Assembly: GCA_964016885.1 (NCBI GenBank)
Contig: OZ024742.1
Span: forward strand, 304,668,001-304,732,000
Direction of reading: 5' to 3'
Origin: Eledone cirrhosa
Lineage: Eukaryota
DNA: 64,000 bases
Every line of letters begins with the position of its first letter. Positions within the stretch are counted from its first letter, which is position 1. Of this stretch, positions 22,125 through 59,028 are shown piece by piece. The notes beneath the pieces are model-generated. The model made no database searches, had not been told where the DNA came from, and saw only the letters and a program-made list of their open reading frames with translations. Both the position numbers and the translations under genes were made by a program.

Positions 22125-22554
22125 AAAGAACATTTTCGCACTACATGGCTGAATACAATAAATGATATCTGAGATTTTCGAATATTAATAATAACATTCG
22201 ATTATGCAAACAAGCCTCAATTTTATAGCCATGTCAGTAGAATGAACCCTTCATTCTTGCTCTTGTGTTGGCATATGTATATACATATATATATATATAT
22301 GTGGGGGGGGTCTGTGTGCGTGTGGGGTGTGTGTGTATGCGTGTGTGTGTGTATGTGTGTGTGTGTGTGTGTGAGAGAGAAAGAGTGTGTGTGTGTGTAT
22401 GTGTGTATCCCGGGTTCAATTGAGGTAACCACAGTAAGTAAGGTAGTCAATACATAGTAGAGTATAGATATTTAATATAGAATAGGTTTCTACAGGACTA
22501 GATCTGTTTGATTCGAAGGATACACAGAAGTACATACACACACAAACAGCATGC

Positions 22555-38999: not shown

Positions 39000-40500
39000 A
39001 AACACCACACGCCACCACACAACACCACACCACACAACACGCATCTCACAGCACCATACCACAACACACCACACCACAACACACACCACAGCATCACACT
39101 ACACCCCACCACAACACACACCGCACACCACAGCATCACTCTACCTCACCACAACACACACCACACACCACAGTATCACACTACACCCCACCAAAACACA
39201 CAACACACACCACAGCATCACTCTACACCTCACCACAACACACACCACAGCATTACACTACACCCCACCAAAACACACAACATACACCACAGCATCACTC
39301 TACACCTCACCACACCACACACCACAGCATCACCCTACCCCTCACCACAACATACACCACACACCCCAGCATCAAACTACACCTCACCACACCACACCAC
39401 ACACCACAGCATCACACTACACCCCACCACAACATACACCACACACCCCAGCATCAAACTACACCTCACCACACCACAACACACACCACAGCATTACACT
39501 ACACCCCACCACAACTCACACCACACACCCCAGCATCACACTACACCTCACCACACCTCAGCATCACACTACACCCCACCCCAACACACACCACACACAC
39601 CAGCATCACACTACACCTCACCACACCACACAACACACACCACAGCATCACACTACACCTCACCACACCACACAACACACACCACAGCATCACACTACAC
39701 CCCACCACAACACACACCGCACACCACAGCATCAAACTACGCCTCACCACAACACGCACCACACACCACAGCATTACACTACACCTCAACACACACCACA
39801 CACCACAGCATCAAACTACGCCTCACCACAACAAGCACCACACACCACAGCATTACACTACACCTCAACACACACCACACACCACAGCAACACACTACAC
39901 CCCACCACAACACACACCACACACCCCAGCATCACACTACACCTCGCCACAGCACACCACACACCACAGCAATACACTACACCTCACTACAACACACAAG
40001 ACACCCCACACTACACCCCACCACACTACACCTAACCACACACCATACACCGCACACCGCCCCACCCCACCACACACCACCCACCACCAAACACCCCACA
40101 GCATCACACAACCCCACACCACTCACCACACGCCCCACGCACCACACAGCACCTCACACCACACAACACCACACCACACACCACTACACCACACCTCACA
40201 CCTCACACCACCACACACCACACTACACCTCACCACACACCACACACAAGACACCACACTACACCACACCACATCACACACCACAAACCAGACCACACAC
40301 CACACAGCACACACCACACACCCACACCACCCAGTACAATACCACACACCACACCACACATACACCACACACCAGACCACACCACACCACACACCACACA
40401 CAACACACCACCACACACCACACATTCCACTCTATACACCACATATTCCACCCCATATCACACCCCGTACATCACACATCGCATAACACACTACATACCA
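39000..40500. repeat. C/A-rich minisatellite (~35-45-bp variant unit) decaying into (CACCA)n
   Basis: The unit caccacagcatcacactacacc(t/c)caccacaacacacacca recurs about 20 times between ~39090 and ~40000; the plus strand has very little G or T. Confidence 0.9.
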
Positions 40501-56692: not shown

Positions 56693-56755
<63 letters not shown>

Positions 56756-56758
<3 letters not shown>

Positions 56759-57280
56759 CAGGTTTAGCAAATAATGAAAAAGTTTCAAAATAAATTTTAA
56801 AAAATTGACTTTACTTACTATAGTTACCTTTACCGAATCGGTTTCGAATCTCAAAAATAAACGGAGAGCATATGGCCTTCGTTGCAAAGAAAGATTCTCG
56901 TCAGAAGGTTCTTGTCATTCGAAGAATATAAAATTCTTGAATTTAAATTACGAACAAGCGCTATCCAAAACTGTTCCCGAGATGAGAGTAAATGAAGTGG
57001 AATCAATTTTTTCAAGGGCCGAAGTAAAGATAGAGGCAGAGGGAGGGAGGTCAAACGGCCACCACTATCACTAGAAGCAGTCGGAACGACCAAATTTTTT
57101 TCTGAACATAGAGGAGAATAGTAATAATAGGATATGTGTTCCTACACGCACAAAGCGCTAAGGGACACATATATTGTCCAACCATATGCCAATGTGGTTC
57201 AATGGCAGGTTAATAAATTAACGAGCCAGAACATATATAATCAGGTTTAGCAAATAATGAAAAAGTTTCAAAATAAATTT

Positions 57281-57284
<4 letters not shown>
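56756..57284 (-). mobile_element. Retrozyme-like or PLE pLTR insert with ~46-bp direct terminal repeats (period 483 bp) in (TA)n
   Basis: aatcaggtttagcaaataatgaaaaagtttcaaaataaattttaaa at 56756-56801 and 57239-57284; internal hammerhead; minus-strand peptide LSSREQFWIALVRNLNSR resembles the GIY-YIG C-terminal RE..WI...LN motif. Confidence 0.8.
56826..56909 (-). ncRNA. Canonical type I hammerhead ribozyme
   Basis: Minus strand: acctt|CTGACGA|gaatct-(40 nt)-agattc|GAAA|ccgattcgg|TA|aaggt. All three stems pair and the site is GUA. Confidence 0.85.
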
Positions 57285-57357
<73 letters not shown>

Positions 57358-58485: not shown

Positions 58486-58565
<80 letters not shown>

Positions 58566-58839
58566 ATACTTTTATTTATGTGCAATTATATTTACCTTTT
58601 ATATATATGCATACATAGACACACATACACAAACACATATATATATATATATATATATTCTATATATATATATATATATAATATATATATGTATATACAT
58701 ATATAATATATATATATATATTATATATATATATATGTATATATAATATATATATGTATGCATATATAATATATATATATGTGTATATATATATATGTAT
58801 ATATATATATGTATATATATATATGTATATATATATATG

Positions 58840-58870
<31 letters not shown>

Positions 58871-58983
58871 TTATATGTATATATATATATATTTATATAT
58901 ATACATATATATATATATACATATATATATATATTTATATATATACATATATATATATTTATATATATACATATATATATATT

Positions 58984-59028
<45 letters not shown>

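Follow-up and report, generated by a model that had tools for sequence, protein, structure and literature searches.

The 535-nt insertion described here, from the genome of Eledone cirrhosa, is in our judgement rather probably a copy, truncated at its 5' end and 1.1 units long, of a non-coding hammerhead repeat that is abundant in the genome and likely mobilised by a PLE from a probably circular RNA. We are much surer that PLE-type machinery inserted it as a non-autonomous repeat than that its template was a circle. Judged by its sequence, the element appears to work like a metazoan non-LTR retrozyme, a known class with which it agrees in the sequence features tested. The retrozyme class and its link to PLEs have already been published (PMC7229834; 10.64898/2026.07.22.740005), and the insertion rules of the present family are the added value over that class. 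How animal retrozymes enter DNA, and why an inverted arm and a one-ended tail mark PLE insertions, are given as open questions in the accessible parts of PMC7229834, PMC8557442 and 10.64898/2026.07.22.740005. A literature search, mainly of open-access papers, listed no prior description of the 483-nt family, of counted pairing of two fixed ends (A and B, below) in retrozymes, or of the 109-nt tail.

In the window, that is, the whole 64-kb stretch of DNA analysed, the insertion (L001) occupies positions 56750-57284 on the minus strand. Unit positions are numbered on that strand from u1 = 57284, which places the predicted ribozyme cut at u454/455. The insertion is a single arm, truncated at its 5' end at u1, and comprises one full 483-nt round plus 52 nt, so that it runs from u1 through a complete unit to u52, where it ends at start site A. 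The monomer (56802-57284, minus) has 36% GC and no recognisable ORF. The 5' copy of the 52-nt repeat (57233-57284, minus) is the start of the truncated round, with position 57233 as the internal copy of site A, and the 3' copy (56750-56801, minus) has site A as its end; the 109-nt segment between A (u52) and B (u161 = 57124) lies at 57124-57232 (minus). The first-pass annotation had described a copy of slightly more than one round with an exact repeat of about 46 nt, and 483 + 52 nt with an exact direct repeat at a spacing of 483 is what is present; without its TA-like tail, the repeat measures 45-46 nt. The (TA)n reported on both sides was also found, at 56696-56756 on the 3' side of the element and at 57284-57354 on the 5' side, and any target-site duplication would be hidden by these flanks. 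Of the direct terminal redundancy named in the same annotation, the exact 483-spaced repeat stands, but a fixed terminal feature does not: since the 5' ends of other copies scatter over the whole unit, the redundancy of the window copy is simply that of a 1.1-mer. The window also contains a 5.3-kb degenerate (TA)n tract at 58487-63760 and, at 39002-40424, 1.4 kb of CA-rich array repeating with periods of 42/82 nt.

The ribozyme was equally well placed by the annotation: a descriptor search found the type I hammerhead at 56826-56909 on the minus strand, with its GUA site and near-palindromic stem III, and it is the sole match of the strict descriptor in the 64-kb window. Stem I has 5 bp (56905-56909/56826-56830) and is followed by CUGACGA (56898-56904), stem II has 7 bp and a long insert (56891-56897/56846-56852), GAAA lies at 56842-56845, and the 4-bp stem III (56832-56842) precedes the predicted cut between 56831 and 56830. 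These proportions are those given for PLE hammerheads, with a helix II of 7 bp and a helix I of 5 bp (PMC4209133). The RNAfold minimum-energy structure of this stretch holds all three stems; the stretch is not stabler than its shuffles (z 0.11), and the fold of the circular 483-nt monomer is more stable than those of 40 shuffles would suggest (z -2.8). A search of Rfam gave only low-complexity miRNA matches and no hammerhead, possibly because of the long insert in stem II. Of 150 unit copies, 137 retain an intact ribozyme core. Within stem II, the pair u390-u437 is compensatory, being A-T in 78 and G-C in 70 of 157 units, which, the lineage being ladder-like, amounts to one or two events and not 70. 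In the clade at the tip of the unit tree, stem III is perfectly palindromic. At L149:6190-6900, a different type I hammerhead is repeated in tandem every 459 nt; its stem II is long and its stem III resembles that of the 483-nt family.

A similarity search of the genome turned up what had been predicted from the single copy, namely dispersed, circularly permuted and tandem 483-nt units. The full 528 nt with its repeat was found again, at 96-98%, on many contigs (40 scored of 2,524 candidates), and one ribozyme 20-mer has 1,021 exact copies. Family copies are head-to-tail multiples of the unit, and because their 5' ends are scattered over it, the family has no fixed LTR. Insertions lie mostly in (TA)n, the median arm length is 476 nt, or about one unit, and arrays of 2-10 units occur, the window copy itself having one ribozyme. 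The unit period stays within 483-487 nt across the family, and the bases at the unit junction are 97-100% conserved and show no scars. In samples taken mostly from one contig and chosen by exact patterns, identity to the window unit falls from 98% to 76% (154 near-full units). A tree of 127 units is ladder-like, and units from three unlinked loci in its young part show 0 differences in 482 positions. Contigs of two sequencing runs of unrecorded kind contain the family as well, which shows its presence only.

Most informative about the insertions are their two fixed 3' ends and the pairing of these ends in two-arm insertions. We inspected 208 loci in six sets: four chosen by exact patterns (79, 36, 26 and 18 loci, mostly on contig C1), 24 loci with a non-A at u454, and the 25 best blast matches. 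Duplicates of one place were dropped, segments shorter than 35 nt were ignored, and ends were classed as A at u44-56 and as B at u150-170. Arms end at two fixed points, A (u52), the commonest 3' end of the family, and B (about u161; u158 in a young subfamily), which lie 81 and 190 nt past the predicted cut, respectively. Among 83 head-to-head two-arm insertions, 68 combine A with B, 2 are A+A, none is B+B, and 13 have an odd end; single arms number 131, ending at A in 98 cases, at B in 20 and elsewhere in 13. Independent 50:50 choice of ends would give such a result with a probability of 2e-14 (54 of the first 56 canonical pairs being A+B). This pairing in inverted insertions is the Penelope footprint of a tail at one end, and the 109-nt A-B segment is the equivalent of the PLE tail. 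The segment has two predicted hairpins and is stabler than 200 of 200 shuffles (z -3.44), and u7-u124 is the stretch with the fewest subfamily substitutions. A and B each finish on a TA-like word, and the place of B shifts between subfamilies with the TA-like word found there, a tracking that later TA slippage could mimic in part.

A second hammerhead-bearing family inserted in (TA)n was observed in the window at 22406-22514 (minus) and at further loci (L259-L308). It obeys the same two-arm rule: in a sample picked on the long end, which includes a few duplicate pairs, 24 of its 29 arm pairs combine a long and a short arm and none is alike. Its tail has a 22-nt antisense match (20/22) to u456-477 of the 483-nt family, just past the cut.

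The insertion pattern of the 483-nt family is close to that of endonuclease-bearing PLEs (Craig et al. 2021, PMC8557442; Arkhipova et al. 2013, PMC3846280), with which it shares 5' truncation, partial tandems, an inverted 5' copy forming a head-to-head arm, an extension at one end only and a preference for (TA)n. Non-autonomous, multicopy, head-to-tail PLE derivatives are also known from the same sources (MRC1, Chlamydomonas). The published tails, often at one end only, measure 30-40 bp, in contrast to 109 nt here, where there is no ORF and where the one-end rule has been counted (68 of 70 canonical pairs). Inverted arms were ascribed to palindrome self-priming in PMC3846280, whereas in the present family the junctions between arms fall all over the unit, with overlaps mostly of 0-3 nt. 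Poseidon of Anolis (PAc; Frangieh et al. 2024, PMC11167929) likewise has two internal RT starts downstream of the hammerhead cut that match the genomic ends, and its tail is the gap between these two starts. Both target strands are cleaved and extended by PAc in vitro, and its AT-rich target, predicted dimer and structured start region resemble the model for the 483-nt family. The start sites of PAc, however, have no homology to the target and show no strand difference, whereas the TA-like words of A and B match the target, and the two ends of a target are nearly always served by different sites.

Multi-unit arms give a further view of how the copies arise. Long arrays were seen among young copies only. 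One of these loci, L340, holds 10.1 units inside a canonical A+B insertion, identical save one 2-nt homopolymer insertion; another, L197, holds 8.9 units, again inside a canonical A+B insertion, with 2 internal singleton differences, none of them shared. Taken together, multi-unit arms contain 35 variants present in all units, 285 singletons and 2 variants in a subset of units, both at L198, where a dinucleotide change occurs in 2 units only; some later expansion or conversion therefore occurs. Private variants common to several units are almost absent (2 in 13,072 sites), and successive units within one arm have 593 shared and 104 discordant subfamily alleles, many of the discordances being in homopolymers. 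A-to-I editing marks recurring unit after unit were not seen among the 35 all-unit variants, which include 5 A>G and 8 T>C changes.

Some copies depart from this pattern. At L066:1425-1962, the two arms of one insertion come from different subfamilies (15 discordant diagnostic sites), which may point to two RNA templates or to later conversion. L139:2049-3495 is an almost exact permuted trimer, running from u437 to u434 without an A or B end and without TA flanks, and could be an integrated DNA ring. Two independent 19-bp minisatellites have grown inside family copies from the segment just past the ribozyme cut, one of about 400 units (L252:6995-10000 and L253:1-4680, contig C4) and one of about 223 units (L256:2582-6850, contig C25). 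An excess of reverse-strand matches, considered as a sign of a parent element, was rejected, as it stems from these two minisatellites.

For the origin of such insertions we infer transcription, cleavage, ligation, dimer asymmetry and primer pairing, which might be ordered as follows. Tandem copies would be transcribed and the hammerhead would cut at GUA, probably aided by dimer folding of the palindromic stem III, after which a host ligase would close the 483-nt monomer. A PLE protein, perhaps as a dimer, would bind the structured A-B segment and nick (TA)n. One target end would then prime at A and, in about four of ten sampled insertions, the other end at B, each target end pairing with a UA-rich word. 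The RT would travel round the circle, covering anything from part of one round to 10 rounds, and the two cDNAs would be joined head to head; in the window copy, a single A-primed cDNA would instead be joined to the other TA end. The conserved ribozyme, the scarless read-through of the cut and the arms of about one unit make cleavage, ligation and rolling reverse transcription the simplest course. In its full form, the proposal is that an asymmetric Penelope RT dimer rolls round ribozyme-made circles, sometimes two of them, with A priming one target strand and B the other through (TA)n/UA pairing; we put this forward tentatively, as possible rather than probable. If this is true, a single reaction would account for PLE tails, inverted arms and the tandems of retrozymes alike.

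Several observations count against a circular template, namely the subset change at L198, the restriction of long arrays to young copies and the rarity of private variants common to several units; identical units, too, would follow from a young, homogeneous tandem master. The main rival, which we judge rather unlikely, is that the same two-site PLE priming acts without any circle on uncleaved or partly cleaved linear multimers from existing arrays, the arrays regrowing as DNA. The young 9-10-mers are possible sources of such templates, homogeneous arrays would also yield identical units, the changes at L198 are shared by a subset of units, and the arms of L232 and L251 pass one cut site and end precisely at the following one. 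The PLE studied in vitro, the only one so far, used unprocessed RNA as its dominant substrate, and its hammerhead mutants were inserted normally (PAc, PMC11167929); in Xenopus, 8 of 9 retrozyme dimers were uncleaved in vitro (10.64898/2026.07.22.740005). On multimer templates, however, tandems would shrink with each generation, because arms are typically about one unit. The scarless 483-487-nt period and the intact ribozyme, kept over up to 24% divergence, also argue for processing over simple multimer copying, and unit-specific differences do not recur between loci, unlike what an aged tandem master would give. Circles have been shown for coral, mussel and axolotl elements of the same design, and a cycle from circle to tandem cDNA has been proposed for retrozymes (PMC7229834), whereas for the 483-nt family a circle is proposed from the DNA.

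Cleaved linear monomers are not the usual template, because most copies cross the cut site intact: at least 2,391 copies, counted as exact 24-mer matches in the genome, run through the predicted cut. Matches to u455-473 number 3,219, about 620 of them in the two minisatellites, and only 37 of the 3,219 have a non-A at u454, including 7 in minisatellite arrays. It is improbable that such monomers are copied and that the RT builds tandems by jumping precisely from one template to another at the ribozyme ends. A slight enrichment of 5' ends at u451-456 (13 of 233, against a uniform expectation of 2.9), exact starts at u455 in 9 of 25 inspected dispersed non-A loci, and the arms of different subfamilies at L066 speak for jumping, but a TA word at u453-454 and pattern selection both confound the enrichment, and a control at u85, itself confounded by a subfamily variant, gave a similar start rate (2 of 30 inspected). 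A control at u456 was overwhelmed by matches of another family. For these reasons, the pile-up of 5' ends at the cut is suggestive, not established, and is not taken as proof of cleavage. Jumping would also have to leave conserved junction bases and no scars, keep the units of one arm within common subfamily alleles and, at L340, make nine consecutive exact jumps. Highly improbable, and largely refuted, is the reading of the window copy as the ordinary truncated 3' end of an autonomous PLE or as a one-off local duplication beside the TA repeat, the two cases that the first-pass annotation had set against its own proposal. Although the hammerhead proportions (PMC4209133) and the insertion footprint are of PLE type, the same unit junction recurs in thousands of copies, 0 of 239 arms reach an ORF or a common parent, and there is no protein remnant.

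The circle reading that we prefer becomes testable through this family with the published in vitro PLE assay. The family is young, as identical copies at unlinked loci indicate, and short enough for synthesis, and it makes exact predictions: two start sites on opposite target ends, dependence on the UA word and read-through of the ligated cut. With metazoan non-LTR retrozymes (PMC7229834; 10.64898/2026.07.22.740005) it shares non-coding tandem units, one type I hammerhead per unit, a GC content below 50%, a palindromic stem III, the presence of PLEs in the genome and the proposed circle-to-tandem-cDNA cycle. The unit of 483-487 nt compares with 150-450 nt in PMC7229834 and 51-972 nt in 10.64898/2026.07.22.740005, and the hammerhead, PLE-like with its long stem II insert, is unlike those of metazoan retrozymes. 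Fixed ends, two-arm insertions and (TA)n targeting are seen here, whereas the accessible parts of the same two sources contain no such description for retrozymes. In Xenopus, 21 TE matches of retrozyme families are PLEs (10.64898/2026.07.22.740005), whereas in the present genome no pLTR homology was found among 50 GIY-YIG loci.

The annotation had also read a degenerate RE-FWI-LN endonuclease end into the sequence upstream of the ribozyme and had derived the family from a PLE 3' end, and neither idea gained support. The letters REQFWIALVRNLN do lie in the open frame 56941-56979, but a Pfam search found no family, phmmer gave 0 matches among 1.84 billion proteins, and an HMM of 65 Penelope proteins, run on six-frame translations of the arms, gave no significant score, the highest (4.2 bits, E 0.37) falling on the antisense strand and not at the endonuclease end. 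A likeness between this frame and the post-RT helix in a Neptune-type ORF was not significant (E 1.6) and was rejected. At the DNA level, blastn of the family against 50 GIY-YIG loci of the genome (the 30 best and 20 with long frames, among 150 listed of 10,597 candidates) revealed no link. The 239 arms in 164 loci adjoin another family segment in 130 cases, TA-rich DNA in 66 and other sequence in 43, and none of these 43 flanks has a common non-repeat extension or a match to a PLE ORF. No autonomous partner emerged from these comparisons or from two further ones: with a tail-segment pattern, all 26 mapped family loci were ordinary copies, and a contig with a loose end in a sequencing run, followed as a lead, was rejected since it led to an unrelated locus. 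An RT and GIY-YIG ORF of an autonomous EN+ PLE is thus absent as far as Pfam, phmmer, the HMM and the arm flanks extend. The genome does hold several Neptune-type PLE families (L147, L148 and L150-L166) whose open frames are long, the largest spanning 1,096 and 938 aa from stop to stop. For one host PLE protein, the named homologues with the highest scores come from bivalves, and one of the Neptune-type families carries a minimal hammerhead downstream of its ORF.
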